From Spirochaetota bacterium (GTDB lineage: Bacteria > Spirochaetota > Spirochaetia > SZUA-6), in assembly GCA_013151965.1 (NCBI GenBank), contig JAADHF010000112.1:29668-93667 (forward strand): a DNA stretch of 64,000 bases. Direction: 5' to 3'. The translations under genes were made by a program, and so were the position numbers. This document shows, piece by piece, positions 2,945 to 46,977 of the stretch (within the stretch, counting starts at the first letter, position 1; each line of letters opens with the position of its first letter). The notes beneath the pieces were generated by a model that saw only the letters and a program-made list of their open reading frames with translations, was not told the DNA's origin and did not search any database.

Positions 2945-4304
<1,360 letters not shown>

Positions 4305-4325
4305 TGACAAATCGGAAAATCATAA

Positions 4326-4355
4326 AGCCGGCACATTAACTGCCGGCTTTTTTTA
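4326..4355. terminator. Bidirectional rho-independent terminator between convergent eno and acyP
   Basis: 8-bp perfect stem AGCCGGCA / TGCCGGCT with a 7-nt loop, followed by T7 on the + strand and A-rich on the - strand. Confidence 0.6.
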
Positions 4356-4634
4356 ATACTGTACGGTGAAACCCCTGTATAATCCGCTGTACGTGCTGTT
4401 CTGTACCTTAACTTCCCTGACAAAAGCGCCGGGAGGGCCTTTTTTTAGCCATTCTATCAGCCTGGTACAGTTCTCCGGACTCCCCTCTGCCACAACTTCC
4501 ACCGAACCATCCGGCATGTTTCTTACATACCCCGAAATTTTCAGCCTCCTTGCCATGTACACAGCGGAAAACCTGAAACCGACCCCCTGTACGGTACCGT
4601 AAACATGAGCTATAAAGGCTTTGTTCTTAGACAA
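4353..4634 (-). CDS. acyP: Acylphosphatase
   Basis: 93 aa. The acylphosphatase signature VQGVGFR and the C-terminal GxVxN..G.V motifs are present. Confidence 0.85.
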   Translation of the reverse strand: MSKNKAFIAHVYGTVQGVGFRFSAVYMARRLKISGYVRNMPDGSVEVVAEGSPENCTRLIEWLKKGPPGAFVREVKVQNSTYSGLYRGFTVQY

Positions 4635-4638
4635 TTAA

Positions 4639-5010
4639 CTAATCCTGTTCGTTTTGTTCCGCCTGCAGAGACTCCGCGATAAGTTTTTCAAGTTCTGTGT
4701 AGTCGAACGGTTTGTACAGTACCGGAAACGGAATCAGAAAATCCGATTTTAAAAAGCCGCTTGTAATGATAATTTTCTTATCACCGAGATAACGTTTTAA
4801 AAACCTTACCCAATAATCTCCGCCTAATATATCCATTCGATAATCCGTTACGATAATGTCTATTGTATGATCAAGGAGATGTTTTATTGCACCGACTCCG
4901 TCGGAGGCGACAAACACCTCATATCCCTTACGCTTTAAAAAATCCCGCAGCGTCAGCCGGATCGAGTCTTCATCTTCGACAACCAGGACAGTACCTTTTT
5001 TATGCGCCAT
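4639..5010 (-). CDS. Single-domain response regulator (CheY-like receiver)
   Basis: VLVVEDED, phospho-acceptor D in IIVTDYRM, T in IIITSG, K in LYKPFD. There is no output domain. It overlaps the upstream gene by 11 nt (ATGGCGCATAA). Confidence 0.8.
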   Translation of the reverse strand: MAHKKGTVLVVEDEDSIRLTLRDFLKRKGYEVFVASDGVGAIKHLLDHTIDIIVTDYRMDILGGDYWVRFLKRYLGDKKIIITSGFLKSDFLIPFPVLYKPFDYTELEKLIAESLQAEQNEQD

Positions 5011-5623
5011 TTCCCCTTCTATACTTTAAAATCAAATCATTAATTTTTACTACAAGCACTTCCAGATCCAGCGGTTTGGTATATATCGCTTCCGCACCCT
5101 CTTTTAAAAGTGCTTTTCTCTCTTCCGGATTATCCAATCCCGTTATTCCTATTATAACAGGATTGCCAAGATCCGGATCGGATTTAATCTTTCTGCACAA
5201 TATATGTCCATCGATGCCCGGAAGATAGATATCGAGTATTATTATTCCCGGCTTCCACTCGGATATCATTCTGCCTGCTTCGTATCCGTCAAAGGCCTGC
5301 AGAATGGTAAATTCGGGCATTTTTCTCGACAAATACCGTTTAATAATATGATTTATATCCCTGTCATCATCTACAATGAGTACTCTCTGCCATTCTGCAA
5401 TTTCTTCCTCTCCTGCATCGATTTCTTCCGGAATCCGCATTCCCCTGGATTTTAAGAACTCGAGCAGATCCTCCTCATAAACCCGGTACTGGCCGCCGGG
5501 AGTCATAAATGCTTTTAAATAACCGCTTTTTATCCAATTGATAGCGGTCTGATTTACGACACCGCATATGTTGGCTACTTCCAGAGCAGAAAATATCCTT
5601 ATCTTCTTTTCATTTTTGGCCAT
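5000..5623 (-). CDS. Atypical response regulator: N-terminal excisionase/MerR-type HTH (HTH_17-like) fused to a C-terminal REC domain
   Basis: The N-terminus ALEVANICGVVNQTAINWIKSGYLKAFMTPGGQYRVYEEDLLEFL matches the excisionase-family HTH pattern. The C-terminal REC has DDD, D in IILDIYLPG, T in GITG and K in YTKP. Confidence 0.75.
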   Translation of the reverse strand: MAKNEKKIRIFSALEVANICGVVNQTAINWIKSGYLKAFMTPGGQYRVYEEDLLEFLKSRGMRIPEEIDAGEEEIAEWQRVLIVDDDRDINHIIKRYLSRKMPEFTILQAFDGYEAGRMISEWKPGIIILDIYLPGIDGHILCRKIKSDPDLGNPVIIGITGLDNPEERKALLKEGAEAIYTKPLDLEVLVVKINDLILKYRRGNGA

Positions 5624-5630
5624 ATACCCT

Positions 5631-5646
5631 ATCCTTCTGTAAGGAT
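5631..5646. promoter_or_regulatory. Perfect 6-bp inverted repeat ATCCTT-ctgt-AAGGAT. It overlaps the presumptive SD of the HTH-REC gene and may act as an operator or an SD-sequestering hairpin.
   Basis: Palindrome read directly from the sequence. On the minus-strand mRNA it reads AUCCUU-acag-AAGGAU, where AAGGAU lies about 10 nt upstream of the AUG. Confidence 0.3.
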
Positions 5647-5683
5647 ATTTTTAAGAGTTTATTTCTCTATATTCTTTAGTATA

Positions 5684-6370
5684 GTGATTATGTCCAGTAT
5701 GTCAATGTCAGATTTTCATAAAGCTGTTTGCGATTACCGTTTTCTCCTGGAGCGGGGATACCCGGGAAAAGCTTCGCTGAAACTTATAGGGGACAGGTAC
5801 CGGCTGTCTAAAATCCGGAGAAACTGCCTTTTCCGCGGTGTTGTAGATTCCGGAACGGCCTTTAGCAGGAAAAGAAAAATAGTGCCCCTGAAAAAAGCCG
5901 AAGCTGTTGCTGTCGGTGTTGACTGGTATAATACACTGATTACCGTAGAGAGCTATTTAAAAGGCTGCACTCTCTTTATAGCAGATGATGGTATTGTAAG
6001 GGATTCGGCAGGAATACACGGAAGCTACAGAGAAAGCAGGGTCACTGAAAAAGCGGTAAATGAGATTATTAAACATCTGGTAAATTTAAAACCGGACAGG
6101 CTGGATATCTTTATCGATTCTCCTGTTTCATATTCCGGAGTCATGGGAGAAAAGATCCGCAGCAAACTGGAAAACGCCGTTAAAGGGAAATACAGTGTGC
6201 AGCTTGTTCCCTCTGCGGATTACCCTCTTAAAAGATATAGAGGTATTGTAGCATCTTCCGATTCGGTTATCCTGGATTCCGCTGCTGCCGTAATCGACCT
6301 TCCCAGGTTCATACTGGAATACTGTTTTAATTACATTCCGCCTGCAGTTGAAAACCTCAATCTTCCATAA
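5684..6370 (+). CDS. Hypothetical protein, DUF434-like N-terminus plus a NYN/PIN-like (DUF5616-like) C-terminal region
   Basis: The N-terminus FHKAVCDYRFLLERGYPGKASLKLIGDRYRL resembles DUF434. VGVDWYNTL, IADDG and FIDSP resemble NYN/PIN-type acidic motifs. The start codon is uncertain because there are several in-frame ATGs. Confidence 0.45.
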   Translation: MIMSSMSMSDFHKAVCDYRFLLERGYPGKASLKLIGDRYRLSKIRRNCLFRGVVDSGTAFSRKRKIVPLKKAEAVAVGVDWYNTLITVESYLKGCTLFIADDGIVRDSAGIHGSYRESRVTEKAVNEIIKHLVNLKPDRLDIFIDSPVSYSGVMGEKIRSKLENAVKGKYSVQLVPSADYPLKRYRGIVASSDSVILDSAAAVIDLPRFILEYCFNYIPPAVENLNLP

Positions 6371-9052: not shown

Positions 9053-9241
9053 ATGAAGGTAAAGATTGATGAAGATCTGTGTACGGCATGTGGTCTATGC
9101 ACAGACAGTGTTCCCGAGGTTTTCGAGCTGGGTGATGAATTTGCAACGGTTATAAAGCCCGAAGTTCCGCCGGAGCATGAGGATGCCGTACGTGATGCGG
9201 CTGCCGATTGCCCCGTAGAATCGATTATAATAGAAGAGTAA
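9053..9241 (+). CDS. Small 4Fe-4S ferredoxin (single cluster)
   Basis: 62 aa, with CTACGLC...DCP (Cx2Cx2C...CP), typical of short [4Fe-4S] ferredoxins. Confidence 0.8.
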   Translation: MKVKIDEDLCTACGLCTDSVPEVFELGDEFATVIKPEVPPEHEDAVRDAAADCPVESIIIEE

Positions 9242-9249
9242 GATAAAAA

Positions 9250-9277
9250 CCTGGCCTGTACCGGCCGGGTTTTTTAT
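9250..9277 (+). terminator. Rho-independent terminator after the ferredoxin gene
   Basis: Stem CCTGGCC / GGCCGGG (7 bp, one G-U wobble), loop TGTACC, then T7. Confidence 0.5.
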
Positions 9278-9326: not shown

Positions 9327-10118
9327 ATGGAAGTAATCTTAACTGAAGACTATAATGAAATGAGTAAAATATCTGCCGGTGAAATTGCCAGACAGGTCAG
9401 AAAAAAGCCTAATTCGGTTATAGGCCTTGCTACAGGCAGTACTCCGCTCGGCACCTATAAAGAGCTCATCCGGCTTCATAAAGAGGAAGGGCTCGATTTT
9501 TCCAAGGTAATTACATTTAACCTGGATGAGTATCTCGGCCTTCCTCCGGCTCATAAGGAAAGTTATAACTTTTTTATGTGGGAAAATCTTTTTAAGCATA
9601 TAAATATAAACCCGGAAAATGTACATGTTCCGCAGGGAATGGTAGAAGATGCAGAGGAATTCTGTGAGTGGTACGAGAAAGAAATAGAAAAGGCCGGCGG
9701 CATAGACCTGCAGCTTTTAGGCATCGGGAGTGACGGACATATAGCATTTAACGAACCGGGATCATCCTTCGGAAGCCGGACCAGGGTTAAAACTCTGGAA
9801 GAACAGACTATCGAGGATAATTCCAGATTCTTTAACAGTATCGACGAGGTGCCCCACTTCGCAATCACCATGGGAGTGGGAACAATATTAGAAGCACGAA
9901 AAATCGTACTGGCTGCTAATGGTAAAAACAAGGCCCAGGTATGTGCCCGGTTTATAGAAGGACCGATTGATTCACAGATTACAGCTTCCGCTCTCCAGCT
10001 TCATCCTCATGCGGTTATAGTTCTGGATGAAGCTGCAAGCTCACAGCTTAAACGTAAAAAATACTACAACTGGATCCGGGACAACAAACACATGGTAAAA
10101 AAATATTTAGGCAGGTAG
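9327..10118 (+). CDS. nagB: Glucosamine-6-phosphate deaminase (short canonical form)
   Basis: VIGLATGSTP, FNLDEY and LLGIGSDGHIAFNEP are the NagB catalytic motifs. Length is 263 aa. Confidence 0.9.
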   Translation: MEVILTEDYNEMSKISAGEIARQVRKKPNSVIGLATGSTPLGTYKELIRLHKEEGLDFSKVITFNLDEYLGLPPAHKESYNFFMWENLFKHININPENVHVPQGMVEDAEEFCEWYEKEIEKAGGIDLQLLGIGSDGHIAFNEPGSSFGSRTRVKTLEEQTIEDNSRFFNSIDEVPHFAITMGVGTILEARKIVLAANGKNKAQVCARFIEGPIDSQITASALQLHPHAVIVLDEAASSQLKRKKYYNWIRDNKHMVKKYLGR

Positions 10119-10134
10119 ATTATAACAGACCTGT

Positions 10135-12051
10135 ATGAAAGATATAAAGGAAGAATTAAGCAGAATAATCGGCTCATCGAATTTTATCAGCAGTATAAGG
10201 GCAGTAAAAGAAAAAAGGGGAGAAAGCGTACTCTTCGGGGATTCCATACGGAAGCTTACCGAAGATGAGATAAAAATCCTTAAAGGTAACGGAAACTACT
10301 GTAATGACTGGTCTTTAATTGCGGTTGTTTATGATTTTAATCCGGGAAAAATCATAAACAGCCTCTTCTTCGGAAAATGTGTTTTGGGGAAATTTACCGG
10401 CGAAACAAGAGATGTTGCCGGAAGTATCTCTCTGCCCACAGGTATTTACAGAAGTACCATAATCAATTCGGAAATAGGAAATGAAGTATTTATTTTAGGA
10501 AACGGCAGTATATCCGGATACATAATAAAAAGCGGAGCTGCAGTTATTAATACGGTAAGTCTATCACATATTGCCGGCGGCTCCTTCGGTAATGGTCTGG
10601 AACTTGCAATCGGAATAGAAACGGGAGGCAGGGAAGTTCTTTCCTTTGCAGAATTGACAATAGATACCGCAGCACGCATTGCAACGGAGAGGGATAACGA
10701 ACAGGTACTCTCCGGCTATAACAGATCTGTTAAAGATTATACGGAAGCTGCAAAGAGCAGTTTCGGAGTGGTGGAAAAAAACGCACGGATATTGAATACA
10801 GTAAGAGTTGCAAATTCCTATATCGGTGATTATGCCGTTATAAATGGTGCGAATGTTATAGAAAATTCTACTATTTTAAGCGGCAGCGGAGAAGAAACAG
10901 AAATAAGCGGCGGAGCATATGTCAGAAATTCGTGTATCCAGTGGGGCTGTTCCGTATCGTCTATGGCAATCGTGGATAGTTCCGTATTAACGGAACATTC
11001 ACATGTGGAGCGCCATGGAAAAGTAACAGAAAGCATCATAGGCCCCAATACCGAAATTGCAGAGGGTGAAGTAACTTCATGTATAGTAGGGCCCTTTGTT
11101 GGTTTTCATCATCAGTCGCTTCTTATTGCCGCAATATGGCCGGAAGGCAGAGGGAATGTCGGATACGGTGCCAATGTCGGTTCCAATCATACATCAAAAG
11201 CACCTGACCAGGAAATCTTCTGCGGGGAAGGAACTTTTTTCGGACTTGGTGTAAATATTAAGTTTCCCTCCGATTTTTCCGCAGCACCTTACAGTATCAT
11301 AGCGACAGGGGTAAGCACACTTCCGCAGAAGGTAGAATTCCCTTTTTCTCTCATTAATGAACCTGCCGCTCATTTTCCCGGCATATCACCGGCATATAAC
11401 GAAATATTCCCTGCATGGGTTCTGTCCGACAATATCTATATGATAAGGCGTAATGAAGGAAAATACAGAAAACGAAATAAGGCAAAACGGACGCAATTTA
11501 TTTATGATGTTTTCAGACCGGATATTATAGACAGGATGATACGTGCACGGGAAACGCTTCTGTCTGTCCGGATAAAAAAGGATATCTATCTGGATAAGGA
11601 TATCAGGGGAATAGGAAAAAACTTTCTTCTGGAGAAAAACAGGGTCAAAGCAATAGAGACTTACTCATACTATATACGGTACTATGCCCTTTCCGGCATA
11701 AAAAAAATGATAGATAAAATAATCGGCAGCGGGAGAAAAATCAGGGAAAGCATGCTGCACGATAAACTTCCGGAAAACAAAAGATGGGAACATGAGCATA
11801 AGATTCTCTGCAAAGAGGGACTGGCAGATAACGGCATTAAAGAAAACCTTAAACTGCTGCTCGAAATGGAGGAAAAAATTGCACGCTCCACCGGGGAATC
11901 CAAGGCAAAGGATGATAAAAGGGGAAAAAGAATAATAAAAGACTACACTGCCGCACATAAACCGGCTGAAGAAGACAGTTTTGTTATCGAAACATGGAAA
12001 AAATATCATAATCTTAGAAAAGAGATAGAAAGCTATGAATTCTGCAGTTGA
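10135..12051 (+). CDS. DUF4954-like protein with a left-handed beta-helix (hexapeptide-repeat) core and a C-terminal helical domain
   Basis: Hexapeptide-like periodicity runs over about 250 aa (IGDYAVINGANVIENSTILSG...IIGPNTEIAEGEVTSCIVGPFVG...VGYGANVGSNHT). The downstream gene overlaps it by 17 nt. Confidence 0.6.
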   Translation: MKDIKEELSRIIGSSNFISSIRAVKEKRGESVLFGDSIRKLTEDEIKILKGNGNYCNDWSLIAVVYDFNPGKIINSLFFGKCVLGKFTGETRDVAGSISLPTGIYRSTIINSEIGNEVFILGNGSISGYIIKSGAAVINTVSLSHIAGGSFGNGLELAIGIETGGREVLSFAELTIDTAARIATERDNEQVLSGYNRSVKDYTEAAKSSFGVVEKNARILNTVRVANSYIGDYAVINGANVIENSTILSGSGEETEISGGAYVRNSCIQWGCSVSSMAIVDSSVLTEHSHVERHGKVTESIIGPNTEIAEGEVTSCIVGPFVGFHHQSLLIAAIWPEGRGNVGYGANVGSNHTSKAPDQEIFCGEGTFFGLGVNIKFPSDFSAAPYSIIATGVSTLPQKVEFPFSLINEPAAHFPGISPAYNEIFPAWVLSDNIYMIRRNEGKYRKRNKAKRTQFIYDVFRPDIIDRMIRARETLLSVRIKKDIYLDKDIRGIGKNFLLEKNRVKAIETYSYYIRYYALSGIKKMIDKIIGSGRKIRESMLHDKLPENKRWEHEHKILCKEGLADNGIKENLKLLLEMEEKIARSTGESKAKDDKRGKRIIKDYTAAHKPAEEDSFVIETWKKYHNLRKEIESYEFCS

Positions 12052-14368
12052 AATCAGGGCACTTGAAAAATCAGGGCATAAACTTAAGTACAGTCCGACA
12101 GAAAAAACAGGTGTTATAACGGTAGATAATTTTCCCGAACTGGGAACATTAACAGCATTAAGATTCTTGGAATGGGTGCAGAAAAACCCGGGCGGTGTAG
12201 TATCCCTGCCTACAGGCAAAACCCCCGAGTATTTTATAAAAGAGGTCAGAAGGTTAAAAGAAGGCTGGGAAAGCAGCTCCGTAAAAAAAGAACTCGAAAA
12301 CCGGGGAATAGACCCGTCTGTAAAACCGGACTTTAAAAGCCTCTGCTTTGTTCAGATAGATGAATTCTACCCGATAAGCCCTCTGCAGCATAACAGTTTT
12401 TACTACTATGTCAATGAGTTCTACATTAACGGTTTCGGACTCGATCCCGGAAAAGCTCTTCTTATAAACTGCAGCGAAATAGGCCTTCCCGAAGGAAAAC
12501 AGATGGAAGACATCTGGCCGGCGGGTAAAGTAGATCTGTCTCTGCGCTGCCGGGCTCCGGAAAGCAAAACGGAAATTCTGCAGAAGGAAACACTGTACAA
12601 AATAGACCAATGGTGCGTCGAGTACGAAAACAAAATACGTTCGTCAGGCGGAATAGGTTTTTTCTTAGGAGGCATAGGCCCTGACGGCCATATAGGATTT
12701 AATGTCCGCGGGTCGGATTTCTACTCCACAACACGTCTCGCCGGAACAAATTACGAAACACAGGCGGCTGCAGCTACCGACTTAGGCGGAATAGAAGTTG
12801 CCAGAAACCGGCTTGTCATTACCATCGGGCTTTCCACAATCACTTTTAACCCTGAATGTACTGCCATAATCATTGCAGCAGGAGACGCCAAAGCTAAAGT
12901 TATTGCAGATGCAGTTCAGAATAAAATGAATGTGGTATATCCTGCCACTGTCCTTCAGAAATTACCCAATGCACGTTTTTTCTTAACCAGGGGTGCATCC
13001 GGACTTTTAATAGAACGCAATGTAAAGTCATTCACCGAAAAAAGAGAACCGAAAACAGATGAAATAGAAAAAATCATAATCGACCTTTCCGCAGAAAAGG
13101 GCAAACCGGTCTCACAGCTTGTTCCCGAAGATTATAATGCTAATTCTCTGGCAAAAGCTCTATACAGAAGATATCCGGAAAAAATAAAAACATTTCAGGA
13201 TCGGACAATACAGGACCTTAAAGCTAAAATCGCACGGGGAACAAAAATAAACAGCGGCAGGGTATTCCTCCATACCGAACCGCACCATGATGATCTGATG
13301 CTCGGCTACCTTCCGTTTATAGTACGTCATATAAGAGACCACAGCACGCGGCACTACTTTACAACCCTGACAAGCGGTTTTACATCGGTTACCAATAAAT
13401 TCATGCTGAATCAATTAAAAAATCTCAAAGAATACATTAAAAAGGGATACTTTAACCGGCTATTCCGAACTAATTACTTCGATTCTGATAACGTCGAGGG
13501 GAAAAACAGGGATGTATGGCAGTACTTAGACGGTGTTGCTGCAGACTCGGAAGACATGAAACATGAGGGAGAATTAAGGCGTCTTACACGGAATCTTATC
13601 CATATATTCAATGAAAAGGAACTGCAGCAACTTGAGTACCGGATAGACGAACTTATAAACTATTTTAACACGCAATACCCGGGGAAAAAGGATATTCGGC
13701 ACATTCAGCTCTTAAAAGGGATGAGCAGGGAGTGGGAAGCAGACTGCCTCTGGGGATATTTCGGCTGGCATTCGGATTCTATTTTTCATTTAAGATTAAG
13801 CTTTTACAGGGGTGATATCTTTACAGAGGAACCTACCGTAGAGGGTGATGTAACCCCTGTCCTTAATCTTTTAAAAAAGATTAATCCGGATATTGTTACA
13901 GTGGCATTCGATCCGGAGGCAAGCGGACCGGACACTCACTACAAGGTACTCCAGGCGGTTACGGAAGCCTTAAAGCTTTACGAAAAGGAATCCGGCCGTT
14001 CCGATATAGAAATAATCGGCTACAGAAATATCTGGTACCGGTTCCACCCCTCGGAAGCGGACATCTTCGTGCCCGTTTCGCTTAATATGTTTTCTCTCCA
14101 GTCCAATGCCTTTTTAAACTCCTTTATAACTCAAAAAACCGCCTCTTTCCCCAGTTACCTTCATGACGGGCCGTTTTCCGAACTGGCTCAGAAGATACAG
14201 GTAGAACAGTACCAGACGCTTAAAACCTGTCTCGGAAGAGATTTTTTTAACAATCACAGAGTTGCACTTATGCGTGCAACACGGGGAATGGTATTCCTGA
14301 AGAAGATGAGTTTAACGGAATTTTACCGGTACTCACGGGAGCTGAAAAAGGGAACAGAGAATAGATAG
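12035..14368 (+). CDS. Fusion protein: NagB-like sugar-phosphate isomerase/deaminase domain (N-terminus) plus PIG-L/LmbE-family N-acetylglucosaminyl deacetylase-like domain (C-terminus)
   Basis: The N-terminus has SLPTGKTP, FVQIDEF and GGIGPDGHIGFN, which are NagB motifs. The C-terminus has HTEPHHDDLMLGY (the PIG-L PHxDD motif), with further H/D residues downstream. Length is 777 aa. Confidence 0.7.
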   Translation: MNSAVEIRALEKSGHKLKYSPTEKTGVITVDNFPELGTLTALRFLEWVQKNPGGVVSLPTGKTPEYFIKEVRRLKEGWESSSVKKELENRGIDPSVKPDFKSLCFVQIDEFYPISPLQHNSFYYYVNEFYINGFGLDPGKALLINCSEIGLPEGKQMEDIWPAGKVDLSLRCRAPESKTEILQKETLYKIDQWCVEYENKIRSSGGIGFFLGGIGPDGHIGFNVRGSDFYSTTRLAGTNYETQAAAATDLGGIEVARNRLVITIGLSTITFNPECTAIIIAAGDAKAKVIADAVQNKMNVVYPATVLQKLPNARFFLTRGASGLLIERNVKSFTEKREPKTDEIEKIIIDLSAEKGKPVSQLVPEDYNANSLAKALYRRYPEKIKTFQDRTIQDLKAKIARGTKINSGRVFLHTEPHHDDLMLGYLPFIVRHIRDHSTRHYFTTLTSGFTSVTNKFMLNQLKNLKEYIKKGYFNRLFRTNYFDSDNVEGKNRDVWQYLDGVAADSEDMKHEGELRRLTRNLIHIFNEKELQQLEYRIDELINYFNTQYPGKKDIRHIQLLKGMSREWEADCLWGYFGWHSDSIFHLRLSFYRGDIFTEEPTVEGDVTPVLNLLKKINPDIVTVAFDPEASGPDTHYKVLQAVTEALKLYEKESGRSDIEIIGYRNIWYRFHPSEADIFVPVSLNMFSLQSNAFLNSFITQKTASFPSYLHDGPFSELAQKIQVEQYQTLKTCLGRDFFNNHRVALMRATRGMVFLKKMSLTEFYRYSRELKKGTENR

Positions 14369-14383
14369 CATAATCTTCTGCAG

Positions 14384-14686
14384 CTATCTGGGTATTCTCT
14401 TTCGCACAATTACCGTAATAAAGGCAAAGATAAAGAAGATCATCGGAAGAACAGACAACAACAGCTTAAGGGCGGGAACTCCGTAAAGAGTAATTACTAT
14501 ATTGCCGGTAATACCGAATATTTCAAGTGTCGTATATACAATATTTATATACTGCACGATAGTTCCTATTATTACAAATATCCAGGCGATATCCCGGGTT
14601 TTCGACCAGAGTAAAACTGCAAAAAAGGTGGCAATGCCGCCCACTGCAACCTTTGAAATAATCAATACGAAATCAGCAAATTCCAT
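14384..14686 (-). CDS. Small membrane protein (three TM helices)
   Basis: Hydrophobic 100-aa ORF, 4 nt downstream of the HemL-like gene on the same strand. Confidence 0.4.
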   Translation of the reverse strand: MEFADFVLIISKVAVGGIATFFAVLLWSKTRDIAWIFVIIGTIVQYINIVYTTLEIFGITGNIVITLYGVPALKLLLSVLPMIFFIFAFITVIVRKRIPR

Positions 14687-14689
14687 TCT

Positions 14690-15523
14690 CTACTTTCCGT
14701 TTATAACTTTTAAAAGTCCGATTATCTTTTTCCGTTCCCCGTCCGAGAGCCCTCCGGGCATAATTGTAGGACCCGGGAAACAGGGAGATATAATTACCCC
14801 TTCAGCCAAAAACTTTTTAAATACGTTTTCGTACTCTGAAATACTGCACTCGGCTTTAAGGTAGATACCCTCCCTCTTCCAGATATTAAACGACTTAGGC
14901 AGCGAAAGGTCAACCCAGTCCGGTATTTTATAATGTTTTAGCCGGTACATCACATGAATAACACCGGCTAAAAGAACTGGAGAAACAGTATCCGAAGCAG
15001 GCAGTACATCCGCGGCCTTATCTTTAGAATCTTTAAAGCACAGTACCGCCGGAGAACCGCCGGCTGCAAAAGGGAAAAGGGGAACGAGCATTTTGTATTT
15101 CTTATAAAAAGTACTGTCCGTAAAGGGCCGCCAGTATGCGGCTTTATAACTTTTATCATCAGGGCCGCCGGCCGAAATCAGTACGGGATCCGTAATATCC
15201 TCTGCAGTTATACTCCCGCCGGATAACAAAGAAATATCCTTTAAAACTCTTTCAAAAGACCTTCTTATTCTAAATGTACTGTAAGCGGGAAATATTGTGA
15301 TAAGAAGTCTTATTAACCTCTTTTCATAAACCGAAGGAAAATCGTACAGCAGCCCTTTGGAAAGAGTATTCTTTAGTGTCCTTGAAAGTTTTTCCGCCCT
15401 GTGACCCAGGAGTGCATGCCCGTTATTCTGATAACAGTCTATATACCTTCTGCCTGTGCAGCCATACAATCTATAGTCCCTGGCTCTTTTGATTTCAGGG
15501 ATAAGTTTATTAAGGTCTATCAA
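14690..15523 (-). CDS. Short, apparently degenerate class-III aminotransferase-like (HemL-like) protein
   Basis: The N-terminus RARDYRLYGCTGRRYIDCYQNNGHALLGH parallels the HemL/AT-III motif DxDGxxYIDxxxGxxxxLGH. The C-terminus EGVIISPCFPG parallels HemL EGVYLAPSQFE. The protein is only 277 aa, and the region aligning to the PLP-lysine loop reads LVPLFPFAAGGSP, with no Lys. Confidence 0.4.
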   Translation of the reverse strand: MIDLNKLIPEIKRARDYRLYGCTGRRYIDCYQNNGHALLGHRAEKLSRTLKNTLSKGLLYDFPSVYEKRLIRLLITIFPAYSTFRIRRSFERVLKDISLLSGGSITAEDITDPVLISAGGPDDKSYKAAYWRPFTDSTFYKKYKMLVPLFPFAAGGSPAVLCFKDSKDKAADVLPASDTVSPVLLAGVIHVMYRLKHYKIPDWVDLSLPKSFNIWKREGIYLKAECSISEYENVFKKFLAEGVIISPCFPGPTIMPGGLSDGERKKIIGLLKVINGK

Positions 15524-16292
15524 CTTTAAAATCTCTCCGTATCATTGCATATGCACTGTGATTATGAATTGATTCCATATTCTCCGCTTCTACGGAAAAA
15601 AAACGGAGATAGGATAATTTCTCCAGTCTTGCCGCCACTTCCCGGACAACATCCTCCACAAATTTGGGGTTTTTATATGCCTGCTCTGTAATGTATTTCT
15701 CGTCTTCGCGCTTCAGCAGAGAGTAGAGAGGACAGGAAGCGGATTCTTCTGCAATCGTAATCAGGTCTTCTATCCATACAAACTTAATCATTTCCACTGT
15801 AATTGTCACATATCCCCTCTGATTATGGGCCGAAAAATCGGAAATTTCTTTGGAACACGGGCACAGTGTATGAACAGGAATTCGTACCGTTGTTGTTATG
15901 GAAAGATGCTTATCATAGGTAGCGGCAATAATACAGTCATAAGACATCAGGGATTCCCACAGAGTAACGGGGGCCTTTTTTGTTAAAAAGTACGGAAACG
16001 AAAATTCGAGATGCGATTTTTCGGCATTCAGTCTTTCCTTCATCCTTAGGAGTATTCTGTCCAGATTCTTATAGCTTACCTCTCCCTTAAACTCGTTAAG
16101 TACTTCTACAAGCCTGCTCATATGGGTACCCCGGTAATGATGGGGCAGGTTTACATAAAGGCTCACATCCGCAACTGTCGGCTGTCTCTGGTTCTTTCTA
16201 TCCTGTACGACAATAGGATACCTGATATTTTTTATTCCGACACAGTTAATAGGTATATTTCTTTTATCCCTTGAATTTTGAATATCAACCAT
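15510..16292 (-). CDS. folE2: GTP cyclohydrolase FolE2/MptA family
   Basis: CPCSKEIS...HNQR and the HNHSA motif are characteristic of COG1469. The likely start is MVDIQNSRDKR at 16292. The longer annotated ORF begins at 16325. Confidence 0.75.
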   Translation of the reverse strand: MVDIQNSRDKRNIPINCVGIKNIRYPIVVQDRKNQRQPTVADVSLYVNLPHHYRGTHMSRLVEVLNEFKGEVSYKNLDRILLRMKERLNAEKSHLEFSFPYFLTKKAPVTLWESLMSYDCIIAATYDKHLSITTTVRIPVHTLCPCSKEISDFSAHNQRGYVTITVEMIKFVWIEDLITIAEESASCPLYSLLKREDEKYITEQAYKNPKFVEDVVREVAARLEKLSYLRFFSVEAENMESIHNHSAYAMIRRDFKVDRP

Positions 16293-17739
16293 CACCAAGC
16301 TTTTCCCTGAGGATTGCCGCAGCAACTTGAGGATTTGCCCTGCCTTTTGTCAGCTTCATTATCCGGCCCATAAGAAACTTAATGGCATGATCCTTCCCCT
16401 TACGAAAATCGGCTACCGACTGCGGATTTTCTTTCATAACCTCCGCAACAAACCCTTCCAGTTTATCCCTGTCGGTAATCTGATTCAGTTTAAGTTTTTT
16501 AACAATAGTATCCGGAGACTCTCCGGATCCGGCCATCCTTGCAAAGACCTTCTTTGCAATCTTGCTGCTTATAATGCCGCTGTCAACAATTTCCATTAAT
16601 TTTGTTATATTTTCCGGGGGGAGAGAAAACTCCTCTATCGTAAGTCCTTCGGTATTCAAGTAGCCTCCGACCTCCGTTATTATCCAGCTTGCTATTTTTA
16701 CCGGTTCTCTATAACCCTTTGCGGCAGCCTCGAAGTAATCGCTTAAAGCCTTCGACGCAGCAAGAACAGAAGCCGCACCCTTCTTAAGTCCGTACTGCGA
16801 AACAAATCTCTTTCTCTTTGCAGCGGGCAGTTCGCCTACTCTTTTGCCCATTTCCGCTTCCAGATCTTTCGTTATCACTACAGGTTTTAAATCCGGCTCG
16901 GGAAAATATCTGTAATCCGCCTCTTCTTCTTTTTCCCGCTGTACTACGGTTTCCCCTGTCCTGTCATTATAACCCCTTGTTACTTTCCCTGTATCCGTAA
17001 GAGTCAGACGTTTCTCTCCCCATTCGGCAAGCTGCCTTTTAATCTCGTATTTAAGTGCATTCCGCATGGCCTTAAACGAATTCATATTCTTTACTTCGGA
17101 GATCGGGGTTTCGTACCTTTTATCATCTTCATAGATCCACAGGTTGATGTTTGCATCACACCTAAGGGACCCTTCCTCCATATTGCAGTCCGATATGCCC
17201 AGATACTTCATTATCTCGCGAATTCCCTGCACATACGAAACAGCCTCTAAAGGCGAGCGCATATCAGGTTCCGAAACAATCTCCAGAAGCGGAGTACCGC
17301 AGCGGTTAAAGTCCACATAGCTCAATCCGGAACCGTCTTCAAGGTGTAAATTTTTGCCTGCGTCCTCTTCCATATGCAGACGAATAATCCTTATGCTCTT
17401 TTTCCCGTCTCCGGTTTCTATATCGAGTTTCCCGCCTGTGCAGACAGGCATATCGTACTGTGAAATCTGATACCCCTTCGGCAGGTCGGGATACATGTAA
17501 TTCTTTCTGTCGAACCCGGTTACAGACGCCACTTTACAGTTTAAGGCCAGGCCGGCTAAAACAGCATCTTCTATCATTTTCTGGTTAACGACAGGCAGAG
17601 CTCCGGGCAGACCGAGACATACGGGACATACCCTGGTATTAGGTATTCCGCCGAACCTGTTTTCGCAGCTGCAGAAAGCCTTTGTTTTCGTTAACAGCTG
17701 GACATGAACTTCACAACCGATAACTACCTCATATTTCAC
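16285..17739 (-). CDS. gatB: Asp/Glu-tRNA amidotransferase subunit B
   Basis: The N-terminus YEVVIGCEVHVQL and the C-terminal YqeY-like tail identify GatB. Confidence 0.92.
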   Translation of the reverse strand: MKYEVVIGCEVHVQLLTKTKAFCSCENRFGGIPNTRVCPVCLGLPGALPVVNQKMIEDAVLAGLALNCKVASVTGFDRKNYMYPDLPKGYQISQYDMPVCTGGKLDIETGDGKKSIRIIRLHMEEDAGKNLHLEDGSGLSYVDFNRCGTPLLEIVSEPDMRSPLEAVSYVQGIREIMKYLGISDCNMEEGSLRCDANINLWIYEDDKRYETPISEVKNMNSFKAMRNALKYEIKRQLAEWGEKRLTLTDTGKVTRGYNDRTGETVVQREKEEEADYRYFPEPDLKPVVITKDLEAEMGKRVGELPAAKRKRFVSQYGLKKGAASVLAASKALSDYFEAAAKGYREPVKIASWIITEVGGYLNTEGLTIEEFSLPPENITKLMEIVDSGIISSKIAKKVFARMAGSGESPDTIVKKLKLNQITDRDKLEGFVAEVMKENPQSVADFRKGKDHAIKFLMGRIMKLTKGRANPQVAAAILREKLGDG

Positions 17740-19183
17740 CGCGGCGCCCCTTTAAAAACCAGGTTTTAGCGGCACGCAATAGACCCTTTTCGCCGAACAT
17801 GCGTCCTGTTAACTGCATGCCGACCGGCAGTCCATCAGAAGTCGTACCTGCCGGAATCGAAACGGCAGGCAGCAGCGCGAGGTTTGCAAAGATGGTACAG
17901 ATGTCGGTAAGGTACATCGAAAGGGGATTATCGATTTTGGACCCGAGTTTAAACGGCGGGACAGGTGATGTGGGCGAGAGAATATATTCATACTCTTCGA
18001 GGATTCTATTCAGTTCTTTTTTAAGAAGATATCTTACCTGCATCGCTTTTTTATAATAGGCATCGTAGTACCCTGCGGAAAGCACGTAATTGCCGAGAAA
18101 AATTCTCCTTTTAACCTCGTCTCCGAATCCTTTTGTCCTGGTATTAACGTATAAATCTTCCAGGTTATTACCTGTAATATCCCTTAGACCGTACCTTACT
18201 CCGTCGTACCTTGCAAGATTGGAAGAAGCTTCGGCAGGGGCAATAATATAGTACATGGCAACAGTTGTCTTAAGGAGCGGCATGGATACTCTCTCCGGGA
18301 CTGCACCTTCGCTTCTAAGCCATGAACAGAACCGTTCCAATACTATGCCGACTTCTTTGTCTATACCTTCACCCGACAATTCTTCAGGTATTGCAATTTT
18401 TTTTCCCTTTAACCGCATTCTTTTAAGGGGGAACAGAGCGGAAAAATCGACATCTTCGGAAGTAAAGTCATTGGAATCGAATCCCGATGCCACACTGATA
18501 ACAAGGGCAATATCATCCGGATCTCCGGAAATAACACCTATCTGATCCATAGATGAGCCGAATGCAACCAGGCCGTAACGGGAAAGACTGCCGTATGTAG
18601 GTTTAAAGCCGTAGGTTCCGCAGAATGAAGCGGGAAGCCGTACCGAACCCCCTGTTTCCGATCCCAGAGCACAAGGTGCCTGGCCCGATGCAACAACCGC
18701 AGCGGAACCGCCCGAACTTCCCCCTGTTACATATTCCCTGTTAACAGGATTCTTAGAGGACCCGTATACAGAATACTCACAGGTGGAACCCATGGCAAAC
18801 TCATCCATATTTGTTCTGCCTACGGGAATAATGCCCTCATTCATAAGCCGCTCCACAACGGTAGAAGAGTAAGGAGCTGTAAATCCCTGCAGTATCGCAG
18901 AACCGCAGGTAGCTTTTCTGCTGCTTATCAGTATGTTGTCCTTAACAGCAATCGGAAGTCCTTCGAGAATTCCCGAAGTACCGGTTTTTCTCGCCTCATC
19001 CGCCTTTACCGCCAGCTCCTCTGCATCACTAAAAAACTCGATATAGCCGTTTAAAGGTACCGGTTTTTTCCTGTCACTTTCATACTGTTCCTTAAAGGAC
19101 GTAATTATTTCCAGAGCCGATACTTCTCCCCTGTCCAGCAGTCTTTTAAGCTCCGTTAAACTTTTGCCGGCAATCTGACCCAT
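17729..19183 (-). CDS. gatA: Asp/Glu-tRNA amidotransferase subunit A (amidase family)
   Basis: The amidase signature GGSSGGSAAVVASG...GSETGGSVRLPASFCG is present. Confidence 0.92.
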   Translation of the reverse strand: MGQIAGKSLTELKRLLDRGEVSALEIITSFKEQYESDRKKPVPLNGYIEFFSDAEELAVKADEARKTGTSGILEGLPIAVKDNILISSRKATCGSAILQGFTAPYSSTVVERLMNEGIIPVGRTNMDEFAMGSTCEYSVYGSSKNPVNREYVTGGSSGGSAAVVASGQAPCALGSETGGSVRLPASFCGTYGFKPTYGSLSRYGLVAFGSSMDQIGVISGDPDDIALVISVASGFDSNDFTSEDVDFSALFPLKRMRLKGKKIAIPEELSGEGIDKEVGIVLERFCSWLRSEGAVPERVSMPLLKTTVAMYYIIAPAEASSNLARYDGVRYGLRDITGNNLEDLYVNTRTKGFGDEVKRRIFLGNYVLSAGYYDAYYKKAMQVRYLLKKELNRILEEYEYILSPTSPVPPFKLGSKIDNPLSMYLTDICTIFANLALLPAVSIPAGTTSDGLPVGMQLTGRMFGEKGLLRAAKTWFLKGRRGEI

Positions 19184-19491
19184 TATTTATCCTCCCCTCC
19201 GGAAGCATCCTCAAGAATCCGCGGAACCGGGAAATAACCGTCCTGGAAATCCGCTGCAAAGGTTTTTATGATAGCCAGAGAAAAGGAATCCTTAATTTCA
19301 TCGACCCTTAAATCTTCGATCGGAATACCTTCCCCGGCACTCAATTCCACATTTTCAGTATCCACGCCTGTTAAAACTTTAAAATAAGAAAGTATTTCCT
19401 CTATCTGTTTTCGAAATTTCTCCTTTTCCTCACCGCTTACCTGCAGTTTGCTCATATAAAGAACAGAATCCAGAACCTTATCATCAATCAT
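19183..19491 (-). CDS. gatC: Asp/Glu-tRNA amidotransferase subunit C
   Basis: About 100 aa, sitting directly upstream of gatA in the canonical gatCAB arrangement. Confidence 0.8.
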   Translation of the reverse strand: MIDDKVLDSVLYMSKLQVSGEEKEKFRKQIEEILSYFKVLTGVDTENVELSAGEGIPIEDLRVDEIKDSFSLAIIKTFAADFQDGYFPVPRILEDASGGEDK

Positions 19492-33282: not shown

Positions 33283-33367
33283 GCCGGCGTGATGAAATTG
33301 GTAGACGTGCCAGACTCAAAATCTGGTGGGCCTTGCGCCCGTGTCGGTTCGACTCCGACCGCCGGCA
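33283..33367 (+). tRNA. tRNA-Leu (anticodon CAA)
   Basis: The acceptor stem is GCCGGCG / CGCCGGC. The anticodon stem-loop CCAGA-CTCAAAA-TCTGG gives anticodon CAA. There is a long variable arm, a T-arm GGTTCGACTCC and discriminator A. No CCA is encoded. Confidence 0.85.
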
Positions 33368-46074: not shown

Positions 46075-46977
46075 ATGAATAATTTTAAGGAACTGTTGGA
46101 ACGGGCCGGGCAGAAGCGCGGATGCATAATCTCTGTTGCACAGGCGGCAGATAAAACAGTCCTGGATGCGGTAAAGCAAGGAACGGAAGCAGGACTCATA
46201 AGTGCAATCCTTGTAGGAAGCAGAGCTGCAATAAAGAAAAAAGCCGAAGAAACGGGGCTTAAACCGGGTTCATATACAATTACGGAACCCGAACCGAACG
46301 AATCACCGGCAGTTACCGCGGTAAGGCTCATTAAAGAAGGCAAAGCTGATATTCTCATGAAAGGCCTTATACCCACCGGAGAACTGCTTAAGGAAGTACT
46401 GCGCAGGGAAAACGGCCTTAATATGGGCAAGACCCTGTCTCATGTTGCTGTTTTTAAGCATCCCGGCTATGACCGCTTTATATTTGTAACAGATGCGGGT
46501 CTTAACATTGCGCCCGATCTCTCACAGAAGAAAGATATTGTTCAGAACGCCATCGACCTTGCTGTAAGCCTCGGGGTTAAAGAACCTGTTGCGGCTGCCG
46601 TTTGTGCAGTGGAGGTCGTTAATCCCGCAATGCCGGCAACAATAGATGCCGCTTCACTTGCGAAGATGAGCGAACGGGGAGTAATAAAAGGCGGCAGGGT
46701 AGAAGGACCTCTTGCTCTGGATAATGCAGTTTCAGTGGAAGCCGCACAGCACAAAGGCATAAAAAGCCCCCTTGCAGGCAGAGCCGATATTCTTCTTGCC
46801 CCGGATATCGAGGCAGGAAATATCCTGTACAAATCGCTGATTTTTTTCACTTCTGCCGAAGCCGCAGGACTAATTGTCGGAGCCCGGGTACCGGTGGTTT
46901 TAACCTCCCGGTCGGATTCCGCAGCAAGCAAACTGTACTCGATCGCCCTCGGTGTACTTTCCGTCAAAGAGAACTAA
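46075..46977 (+). CDS. ptb: Phosphate butyryl/acetyl-transferase family (Ptb-like)
   Basis: 300 aa of the PTA_PTB family (DAGLN, LLAPDIEAGN). Confidence 0.8.
   Translation: MNNFKELLERAGQKRGCIISVAQAADKTVLDAVKQGTEAGLISAILVGSRAAIKKKAEETGLKPGSYTITEPEPNESPAVTAVRLIKEGKADILMKGLIPTGELLKEVLRRENGLNMGKTLSHVAVFKHPGYDRFIFVTDAGLNIAPDLSQKKDIVQNAIDLAVSLGVKEPVAAAVCAVEVVNPAMPATIDAASLAKMSERGVIKGGRVEGPLALDNAVSVEAAQHKGIKSPLAGRADILLAPDIEAGNILYKSLIFFTSAEAAGLIVGARVPVVLTSRSDSAASKLYSIALGVLSVKEN

Follow-up and report, generated by a model that had tools for sequence, protein, structure and literature searches.

We analyzed a three-gene operon in a 64,000-nucleotide stretch of contig JAADHF010000112.1 from a Spirochaetota bacterium (assembly GCA_013151965.1), hereafter referred to as the window. 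All three genes lie on the plus strand: nagB (gene 1; positions 9327-10118, 263 amino acids), predicted to encode a canonical allosteric-type glucosamine-6-phosphate deaminase; a DUF4954 gene (gene 2; 10135-12051, 638 amino acids), whose product combines left-handed beta-helix (LbH) segments with a C-terminal helical domain; and a gene for a "long NagB" (gene 3; 12035-14368, 777 amino acids), in which a NagB-fold domain is joined through a helical linker to a LmbE/PIG-L-fold domain with a helical insert. A first-pass annotation of this DNA had described these genes as a tight operon, and our list of open reading frames (ORFs) returned exactly the same coordinates. Reading the junction sequences directly confirmed a 16-nt spacer between nagB and the DUF4954 gene (10119-10134, plus strand), in which no obvious Shine-Dalgarno sequence is seen, and a 17-nt overlap between the DUF4954 gene and gene 3 (12035-12051, plus strand), which suggests translational coupling. 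The three genes are predicted to form one transcription unit. Its boundaries also agree with the first-pass annotation, which had placed a terminator upstream (9250-9277) and a convergent gene downstream. At the 5' boundary a terminator-like hairpin of 12 pairs, 6 of them G-C, followed by a T-run (9245-9274, plus strand), ends the gene of a 62-amino acid 4Fe-4S ferredoxin with Fer4_15 and Fer4_13 matches (9053-9241). The 3' boundary is a hydrophobic ORF of 100 amino acids on the minus strand (14384-14686), which has no family match and lies 15 nt past the gene 3 stop codon.

All three proteins have an identical counterpart in a Spirochaetota metagenome-assembled genome (MAG), namely NOY09539.1, NOY09540.1 and NOY09541.1, and each of the genes has homologs in the thousands, indicating that the ORFs are real genes. 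In the database the first and the last are named "glucosamine-6-phosphate deaminase" and the second "DUF4954 family protein". Approximately 170 loci from other genomes and metagenomes, labeled L001 and so on, were used for comparison. The order nagB-DUF4954-gene 3 with an overlap of about 17 nt was also found in the related Spirochaetales contigs L004, L005 and L016, and with a shorter overlap in L011 of the same group. A Pfam and NCBIfam scan of the window's ORFs of at least 200 amino acids, in which some housekeeping ORFs (5-8 kb and 16-22 kb) were assessed from their translations instead, revealed no nagA, ROK kinase or regulator, phosphotransferase system (PTS) gene or glmS, in line with the earlier statement that nagA, PTS and kinase genes are missing nearby. 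An Rfam scan detected no riboswitch or ribozyme near the operon; its sole match in the window is a tRNA at 33283-33367.

Protein families encoded by the operon

Gene 1 exceeds the NCBIfam cutoffs of both the nagB equivalog TIGR00502 (327.9 bits, cutoff 236.9) and NF001684 (358.3 bits, cutoff 326), and scores 84.5 bits with Pfam Glucosamine_iso. In an alignment with E. coli NagB, the residues for catalysis (D72, D141, H143 and E148), for phosphate binding (R172 and K208) and of the allosteric site (S151, S152, R158, K160, T161 and Y254) are all conserved. Numbering of the E. coli residues is approximate. By these criteria gene 1 encodes an ordinary allosteric NagB, as the first-pass annotation had it, which would interconvert glucosamine 6-phosphate (GlcN-6-P) and water with fructose 6-phosphate (Fru-6-P) and ammonium. 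The enzyme is probably activated by N-acetylglucosamine 6-phosphate (GlcNAc-6-P).

The DUF4954 protein matches Pfam DUF4954 (PF16314) over profile positions 2-431 of 433 with 186.2 bits (threshold 26.2). It also matches Hexapep_GlmU (28 bits, cutoff 23.3) and, below threshold, LbH_EIF2B, with further weak similarities to GMPPB_C and GlgC C-terminal regions. A profile built from two DUF4954 subfamilies and run against PDB sequences retrieved eIF2B epsilon (E 6e-5), gamma-carbonic anhydrase (7e-5), the archaeal GlmU-like protein ST0452 (1.5e-4) and GlmU (~0.01), so that LbH matches span 6e-5 to 1e-2; LpxD appeared only at E 4.6. These results place gene 2 in the LbH/hexapeptide-repeat superfamily and bear out its earlier description as a DUF4954 beta-helix protein. 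No solved DUF4954 homolog was found among PDB sequences by phmmer and profile searches, which gave generic LbH matches only. Assignment as a gamma-class carbonic anhydrase was rejected, as the GH...HGC histidines of plant gamma-CA2 align with Asn and Trp.

The canonical DUF4954 subfamily, of the Bacteroidales/Ignavibacteria type, reaches approximately 585-600 bits with PF16314 and has a DUF6819 domain (PF20683), detected at 1e-41, at its C-terminus. The C-terminal 163 amino acids of gene 2 (residues 476-638) have no Pfam match at E<10, DUF6819 included, and the protein is 22-25% identical to the canonical subfamily. It is thus classified as a member of a divergent subfamily without detectable DUF6819. 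DUF4954 homologs retain more than 50% identity across phyla, and at 90% identity the family falls into at least 8,000 clusters. Among homologs, GPFVGFHHQ...GANVGSNHTSKAPDQE is a nearly invariant segment. Twenty positions are invariant across both subfamilies, among them W59, E162, G164, R166, N305, E312, H325, H326, N341, R439, K443 and R447, which are candidate active-site residues. Two clusters can be located precisely: E162-T-G-G-R166 (10618-10632, plus strand), where both subfamilies keep E162, G164 and R166 without exception and G165 almost always, and the invariant H325-H326 (11107-11112, plus strand) inside GPFVGFHHQ, the most conserved segment, a candidate catalytic or metal-binding site.

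Gene 3 had been described as a fusion of a NagB-like domain with a PIG-L deacetylase. Pfam was expected to return Glucosamine_iso for gene 1, DUF4954 for gene 2 and Glucosamine_iso together with PIG-L for gene 3; the first two expectations were borne out and the third was not. The N-terminal domain of gene 3 reaches 14.8 bits with Glucosamine_iso, below the cutoff of 27, and PIG-L (PF02585) has no match in gene 3 or its halves even at E<10. Its domains were instead detected via sub-threshold NCBIfam matches, structure prediction and conserved motifs. The AlphaFold2 model, built from a 50-sequence alignment, is highly confident (pLDDT 94.1, pTM 0.91). In this model the N-terminal domain (12035-13054, plus strand; approximately residues 1-340) superposes on solved NagB structures, and the C-terminal domain (13247-14365, plus strand; approximately residues 405-777, with the helical insert at about 454-575) has the LmbE/PIG-L fold. 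Diacetylchitobiose deacetylase and BC1534, an LmbE-related protein of B. cereus, are among the solved structures closest to the C-terminal domain. Both metal motifs of this fold are present: H417-H418-D419-D420 (13283-13294, plus strand), an LmbE-type H-x-D-D metal/catalytic motif with its four residues kept in 44, 42, 47 and 49 of 50 family members, and H635 in G-P-D-T-H (13937-13939, plus strand; 46 of 50), a candidate third metal ligand. The fusion claim therefore holds at the level of fold and motif (H417, D419, D420 and H635), and gene 3 is modeled as a diverged NagB-fold domain fused to a LmbE/PIG-L-fold domain with the zinc de-N-acetylase motif H-x-D-D...H.

The NagB-fold domain keeps D109, D217, H219 and K286, equivalents of E. 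coli D72, D141, H143 and K208, in 34-38 of 43 family members, and R234 is kept as well. It has lost the equivalents of Glu148 and Arg172 and of the allosteric-site residues Lys160, Thr161 and Tyr254, and carries insertions of approximately 25 and 30 residues. These differences indicate that the domain is not a plain duplicate of gene 1, which agrees with the earlier view that a second NagB domain is no simple redundancy. Gene 3 scores 198.8 bits against NCBIfam PRK02122/NF002557 "glucosamine-6-phosphate deaminase-like protein", for which the cutoff is 384. Seven of ten family representatives score 120-199 bits against PRK02122 and three have no match at E<=1e-30, so that gene 3 and these relatives constitute a sister family of PRK02122 and are not members of it. 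Homologs are abundant, with at least 6,886 matches, of which the best 120 show 62-66% identity and come from Spirochaetota, KSB1 and unclassified MAGs. The family has 285 members below E 1e-30 in a 50%-identity representative library and at least 6,800 clusters at 90% identity.

Conservation of the nagB-DUF4954 pair

Gene neighborhoods were collected in two scans, one anchored on DUF4954 (one genome per species, best 80 loci) and one anchored on gene 3 in metagenomes (best 80 loci). Counts are from our own ORF calling, and ORFs shorter than 90 amino acids were recovered later with hidden Markov models. In the DUF4954-anchored scan, 71 loci extend far enough upstream to be assessed, and in 54 of them nagB lies directly 5' of DUF4954 on the same strand. 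The two genes are separated by a median of 59 nt, and the neighboring NagB is, at the median, 67.5% identical to NagB of the window. In two loci, L033 and L040, nagB is directly downstream of DUF4954 rather than upstream. The 80 loci span approximately 14 phylum-level groups: Spirochaetota including Leptospirales, Calditrichota, Sumerlaeota, Krumholzibacteriia, Latescibacterota, Eisenbacteria, Planctomycetota, Omnitrophota, Gemmatimonadaceae, Fibrobacter, Chitinispirillaceae, Chitinivibrionales, Auribacterota, Firestonebacteria and Elusimicrobiota. No nagA was found within 10 kb in any of them. Gene 3 shares an operon with DUF4954 only in L004, L005, L011 and L016; in L001/L045 and L073 it lies close by. 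What has been conserved in evolution is the nagB-DUF4954 pair, which gene 3 joins only in some lineages; conservation of the neighborhood, proposed earlier as a check on the operon, holds for this pair and only in part for gene 3. A 796-amino acid gene adjoining nagB-DUF4954 in L002 was considered as a gene 3 homolog and ruled out, having no tblastn match.

DUF4954 also occurs without nagB. Five Leptospira-like loci (L037, L038, L054, L063 and L083) lack nagB and share a conserved neighborhood consisting of a GT4 glycosyltransferase, proteins of 309 and 224 amino acids, and a membrane-anchored protein of approximately 750 amino acids, which suggests a role not tied to GlcNAc catabolism. A GlmS-like gene (608 amino acids, MCGIIGY... 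N-terminus) lies 2.2 kb from DUF4954 in a Spirochaetota MAG (L079:5945-7771, minus strand), so that DUF4954 is no simple GlmS replacement everywhere. Metagenome contig L147 contains two DUF4954 paralogs, at 3554-5767 and 12842-14806, both flanking a long NagB; one is 737 amino acids long and weak on PF16314, and the other is canonical and accompanied by acyl carrier protein (ACP), ACD and nagB genes.

Acetyl and acyl transfer genes near DUF4954

A four-gene cluster accompanies the canonical DUF4954+DUF6819 form. It encodes a dedicated PP-binding carrier protein of 80-83 amino acids, in which the motif ANFxFDLGA[DS]SxQS...AAFEEEFxIEMDE is highly conserved, a 706-716-amino acid ligase of the ACD-like type (ADP-forming acyl-CoA synthetase), NagB and DUF4954. 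This cluster was found in Bacteroidales (L170:24-5457; L171:2577-8010), in Ignavibacteria-like genomes (L165:2235-8986; L166:3588-8986; L169:2112-7986) and, on the minus strand, in metagenomes (L088:12344-17564; L147:12842-18243), with partial copies in L090 and L118. Omnitrophota L167 and L168 have the carrier, ACD and DUF4954 genes without nagB, and L164 has an HMGL-like gene followed by carrier and DUF4954 genes. No description of the four-gene cluster was found in the searchable literature.

Loci with window-type DUF4954 carry other acetate and acetyl-CoA genes as well. In Firestonebacteria (L075:5012-11878) the order is nagB-pta-ackA-(NTP_transf_4+Hexapep, a GlmU-like transferase)-ACP-AcpS-DUF4954, and in Latescibacterota (L034:28-7757) it is nagB-DUF4954-pta-(NTP_transf_4+Hexapep)-ACP-GH4-?-ackA, where GH4 is a glycosidase. 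AckA flanks nagB/DUF4954 in L031, L032, L060 and L065, and a split ACD lies downstream in L058. Occurrence of the non-homologous ACD, AckA with Pta, and AckA alone in the same neighborhood suggests that the acetyl group is the metabolite they have in common, and the presence of a carrier protein, a phosphopantetheinyl transferase and a nucleotidyltransferase near DUF4954 points to biosynthetic acyl transfer. Going beyond the first-pass annotation, the ACP, AcpS, ACD-like ligase, AckA/Pta and GlmU-like transferase neighbors suggest an acetyl-transfer, possibly biosynthetic, role for DUF4954.

Gene 3 neighborhoods

In the gene 3-anchored scan, gene 3 adjoins nagA in 7-10 of 80 loci, nagB in 11 of 80, and a gene for an MFS+HEAT membrane protein in 7-8 of 80. 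In L088 and L090 nagA is divergent from gene 3, which in turn is convergent with a canonical DUF4954-nagB pair. L118 has the window's order, nagB-DUF4954-gene 3, with a canonical DUF4954 that is only 22-25% identical, and the DUF4954-gene 3 part of this arrangement is also found in L119. Elsewhere gene 3 is followed, with 4-nt overlaps, by a ROK gene with a helix-turn-helix (HTH) domain, of the regulator type, and a ROK gene without HTH, of the kinase type (L125:4619-9140; L126:763-5191; L136:239-4535; L157:9980-14513), which would be a minimal three-gene GlcNAc-type operon. In tight nagB-ackA-gene 3 operons, ackA is placed between the short and the long NagB (L129:1252-5526; L138:8052-12325; L145:678-4904; L153:1284-5537). 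A NAD-dependent epimerase and a Gfo/Idh/MocA oxidoreductase are encoded 3' of gene 3 in L129, L138, L141 and L145. The recurrence of gene 3 beside nagA, a ROK kinase and a transporter places it in GlcNAc-type neighborhoods and shows that it is no obligate nagA substitute.

Several additional neighbors of gene 3 were observed. A ferritin-like ORF also trails nagB-ackA-gene 3 in some loci. The MFS+HEAT protein, approximately 740 amino acids long with MFS_1 in its N-terminal half and C-terminal HEAT repeats (L098:6066-8321; L100:3178-5400; also L094, L096 and L088), is a possible amino-sugar or muropeptide transporter. In a KSB1 MAG (L003:12429-16796) gene 3 is followed by genes for an M20 peptidase, DUF1611 and an MR_MLE-type (dipeptide epimerase-like) protein, a set reminiscent of murein-peptide recycling.

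Flanking genes and other features of the window

Housekeeping genes lie 3' of the operon on the minus strand (15510-19491), namely a folE2-type GTP cyclohydrolase gene and, judged by translation, gatB, gatA and gatC. L004, L011 and L016 share the downstream flanking genes of the window, which indicates vertical inheritance of the locus in this Spirochaetales clade. A 300-amino acid PTA_PTB family protein (phosphate acetyl/butyryl transferase) is encoded at 46075-46977 (plus strand), 32 kb from the operon, and is the sole acetate/acetyl-CoA gene noticed in the window. Three other genes are unrelated to the operon: a penicillin-amidase family gene (27199-29397, minus strand, 503 bits), a PAS-adenylate/guanylate cyclase gene (55741-57312, plus strand), and a gene for an 859-amino acid HEAT-repeat protein (57355-59934, plus strand). 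The last was considered as a counterpart of the MFS+HEAT transporter seen beside gene 3 elsewhere and was ruled out, having no BLAST match.

Proposed roles and alternative explanations

The best explanation for these observations, which as a whole we regard as plausible though somewhat short of probable, is that all three products act at the Fru-6-P/GlcN-6-P/GlcNAc-6-P junction. Gene 3 would take the N-acetyl group off an N-acetylhexosamine 6-phosphate, most simply GlcNAc-6-P, and then pass the amino sugar to its own or a separate NagB site. The steps of NagA and NagB would thus be combined in one polypeptide, which fits the compact operons with a ROK kinase and a ROK regulator. The DUF4954 protein is probably an acetyl-thioester-dependent N-acyltransferase. 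It would acylate (acetylate), from a thioester donor, the GlcN-6-P made or used by NagB, and in the window-type subfamily the donor would probably be acetyl-CoA. The equilibrium of NagB favors deamination at physiological ammonium, and exergonic acylation would therefore pull the unfavorable amination of Fru-6-P, so that ammonium and acetate would feed the formation of GlcNAc-6-P. Such thermodynamic coupling would provide a rationale for the near-obligate pairing of nagB and DUF4954. The reverse possibility of energy-conserving deacetylation, from GlcNAc-6-P via acetyl-thioester or acetyl phosphate to ATP through ACD or AckA, was ruled out on thermodynamic grounds: by our own estimate, amide hydrolysis and deamination cannot pay for ATP synthesis.

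A number of observations weigh against these roles. In the NagB-like domain of gene 3 the equivalent of Glu148 is V224, at a position that is always hydrophobic in the family, and the equivalent of Arg172 is Thr, which makes deaminase activity uncertain. The AlphaFold2 model of the DUF4954 protein, built from a shallow alignment (38 sequences, mean column identity 61%), is poor (pLDDT 70.8), with residues 285-361 below 50; this stretch (window 10987-11217) coincides with the most conserved DUF4954 segment. A Foldseek search with the model gave no significant match, a search made meaningless by the poor model of the key segment. As a GlmU-type GlcN-1-P N-acetyltransferase, gene 2 was rejected on an hhalign probability of 19.7% over 53 columns against E. 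coli GlmU, and as an LpxA/LpxD-type acyl-ACP-dependent acyltransferase on 3.6% against E. coli LpxA, so that we claim no GlmU or LpxA family membership for DUF4954; the catalytic His of ST0452 ("PHLSY") likewise aligns with a non-His residue. ACP or acetate-activating genes adjoin window-type DUF4954 in no more than about 7 of 80 loci, and the operon of the window has no such neighbor. Moreover, an N-acetyltransferase and a de-N-acetylase on one mRNA would form a futile cycle in the window unless regulation or a difference in substrates keeps them apart. AckA, Pta and ACD could simply recycle acetate from deacetylation, and the NagC-like ROK regulators near nagB-DUF4954, together with the nagA, transporter and kinase genes beside gene 3 elsewhere, fit catabolism.

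One alternative is a purely catabolic nag operon, in which DUF4954 would be a non-orthologous GlcNAc-6-P de-N-acetylase or other hydrolase that feeds GlcN-6-P to NagB, possibly metal-dependent via the invariant His-His, Glu and Arg, with AckA/Pta/ACD recycling acetate. The lack of nagA within 10 kb in all 80 DUF4954-anchored loci, with nagB adjacent in 54 of 71, would then be explained, as would the NagC-like ROK regulators found 5' of nagB-DUF4954 in 12 loci and the equivalent slots that DUF4954 (L065, L032, L060) and gene 3 (L129, L138, L145, L153) fill in nagB-ackA-X operons. LbH hydrolases and hydro-lyases are known, namely gamma-carbonic anhydrases and the PaaY thioesterase, and the DUF4954 profile does match gamma-carbonic anhydrase (E 7e-5), though the zinc histidines of that enzyme are not kept at the aligned positions. 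We consider a purely catabolic operon unlikely: hydrolysis leaves the dedicated carrier protein, AcpS and the GlmU-like nucleotidyltransferase unexplained, canonical DUF4954 occurs together with nagA in L088 and L090, and in T. pallidum, as in Leptospira-like loci that lack nag genes, DUF4954 has been kept. A different modification, compatible with either role of DUF4954, is that gene 3 acts on another N-acetyl sugar (e.g., GalNAc-6-P, ManNAc-6-P, MurNAc-6-P, free GlcNAc or chitobiose) in a parallel branch and does not duplicate NagA and NagB. The altered active-site and phosphate-site residues of its NagB-like domain (E148V, R172T) agree with this, as do its clusters with bona fide nagA and nagB in L088 and L090, the diacetylchitobiose deacetylase and BC1534 among its closest structures, and the epimerase and oxidoreductase genes that follow it in four loci. 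The gene 3-ROK regulator-ROK kinase operons hold nothing else and would be complete only for a GlcNAc-type route, however, and no tagatose-6-P kinase/aldolase, MurQ or NanE was seen among the recurrent gene 3 neighbors, which leaves another substrate a doubtful but serious option.

We think it quite improbable that DUF4954 is a non-catalytic regulator or scaffold that tunes the direction or activity of the deaminase, like the LbH domains of eIF2B epsilon/gamma or ADP-glucose pyrophosphorylase. Its best matches are indeed LbH domains without catalytic function, those of eIF2B epsilon (E 6e-5), GMPPB_C and the C-terminal part of GlgC, and gene order with nagB is strictly conserved. Against this, DUF4954 is also found without nagB, identity exceeds 50% across phyla, 20 positions are invariant between subfamilies that share 22-25% identity, and the invariant residues, charged ones and His included, such as E162, R166, E312, H325, H326, N341, R439, K443 and R447 are typical of an active site. 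That three unrelated genes were simply packed together in one MAG, for which only the general compactness of bacterial genomes speaks, is already refuted and retains hardly any probability: nagB-DUF4954 recurs in 54 of 71 loci and about 14 phyla, and the full triple is seen again among highly diverged orthologs.

If N-acylation by DUF4954 is nevertheless taken as the starting point, a larger proposal follows that we put forward as a rather speculative one. NagB and DUF4954, with the dedicated carrier and ADP-forming ligase or AckA/Pta where present, would constitute an unrecognized and widespread route that leads directly from fructose 6-phosphate, free ammonium and acetate to N-acetyl- or another N-acyl-glucosamine 6-phosphate. 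It would circumvent both GlmS and the acetyltransferase step of GlmU without using glutamine. DUF4954 would represent a new LbH class of amino-sugar N-acyltransferases and the long NagB its deacylating and deaminating counterpart. The route would extend over Spirochaetota, Bacteroidota/Ignavibacteriota, Fibrobacterota, Planctomycetota, Omnitrophota and many candidate phyla.

Relation to known systems

The module acts like a nag/glm-type amino-sugar node but differs from the characterized nagBACD operon. With the E. coli-type nag operon (nagB-nagA, NagC) the window shares a bona fide allosteric NagB and the same metabolic node, and related loci share a NagC-like ROK regulator, a ROK kinase, nagA and a transporter. 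In contrast to that operon, no amidohydrolase-type NagA was found in the 64 kb of the window or less than 10 kb from DUF4954 in 80 genomes; DUF4954 and the long NagB are present as additional, uncharacterized proteins, and in other phyla ACP, an ACD-like ligase or AckA/Pta are added.

The inducible UDP-GlcNAc/GalNAc pathway of Giardia and Entamoeba follows the logic proposed here, in that the NagB homolog Gnp aminates Fru-6-P towards GlcN-6-P and N-acetylation by an acetyltransferase then pulls the flux. The acetyltransferase of these organisms is a GNAT (GNA1) and not an LbH protein, and the pathway has neither carrier protein nor ACD. Anabolic use of a NagB homolog has been described for the Giardia cyst wall (PMC1484493).

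In a phylogenetic study of 2006, Andersson et al. (PMC1484493) described a "long version of nagB", whose extension of approximately 500 amino acids is conserved, in Entamoeba, ciliates, Dictyostelium, Trichomonas, Rhodopirellula and Bacteroidetes; its members have a NagB domain of approximately 260 amino acids plus the extension and share more than 48% pairwise identity. Like gene 3, these proteins and PRK02122 have an N-terminal NagB domain and a C-terminal extension of approximately 450-500 amino acids, are highly conserved across distant taxa, and are annotated plainly as glucosamine-6-phosphate deaminase. The 777 amino acids of gene 3 and its 62-66% identity across phyla fit the published description. 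No biochemistry of the C-terminal extension was found in the searchable literature. Expression of nagB from the chitin locus (ChiUL) of F. johnsoniae was unsuccessful (PMC5127042), and an Entamoeba RNAi paper reports a 37-kDa band and hence does not characterize the long form. The fold and metal motif of gene 3 are common to LmbE/PIG-L zinc de-N-acetylases (MshB, BshB/BC1534, Pyrococcus diacetylchitobiose deacetylase and PIG-L), from which it differs in the lack of a PF02585 match, the helical insert of approximately 120 residues and the fused NagB-fold domain. The same fold also includes a hydratase, GalB.

DUF4954 resembles the hexapeptide acyltransferases (GlmU C-terminal domain, ST0452, LpxA/LpxD) in having LbH repeats followed by a helical C-terminal domain, and further in its context of acyl carrier protein and acyl-activating enzymes and in its presumed amino-sugar substrate. 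Unlike GlmU, ST0452 and LpxA, it is much larger, has two LbH segments split by helices and no nucleotidyltransferase domain, and its likeness to them is generic to LbH proteins (E 1e-4 to 1e-2), with the catalytic His not kept. A DUF4954 protein is listed in the reduced genome of T. pallidum, beside lgt and ribosomal-protein genes and away from nag genes (PMC6953169). In the open full-text literature we found no functional work on DUF4954, PF16314 or DUF6819, and nothing functional on LmbE/NagB fusions or on T. pallidum glmS, glmU or nagA. As far as the searchable literature shows, the module is uncharacterized, as the first-pass annotation had proposed, and its reading of the operon as an amino-sugar processing module is supported. 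What was already known is the long nagB, described since 2006, and the PRK02122 family; the operon contains two widespread components without assigned activity.

Biological significance

Synthesis of the cell envelope and the turnover of chitin, mucin and peptidoglycan depend centrally on UDP-GlcNAc supply and GlcNAc salvage. DUF4954 and the long NagB are two large and very conserved families at this amino-sugar node to which no activity has been assigned, and their hosts include gut Bacteroidales, Fibrobacter, spirochetes including T. pallidum, and many uncultured phyla. The comparative data make DUF4954 testable by naming a partner NagB, likely co-substrates (acetyl-thioester/ACP and GlcN-6-P), candidate residues and tractable organisms. 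If the anabolic reading is true, metabolic reconstructions of these phyla miss an ammonium- and acetate-dependent amino-sugar route; if the catabolic one is true, they miss a non-orthologous deacetylation step.

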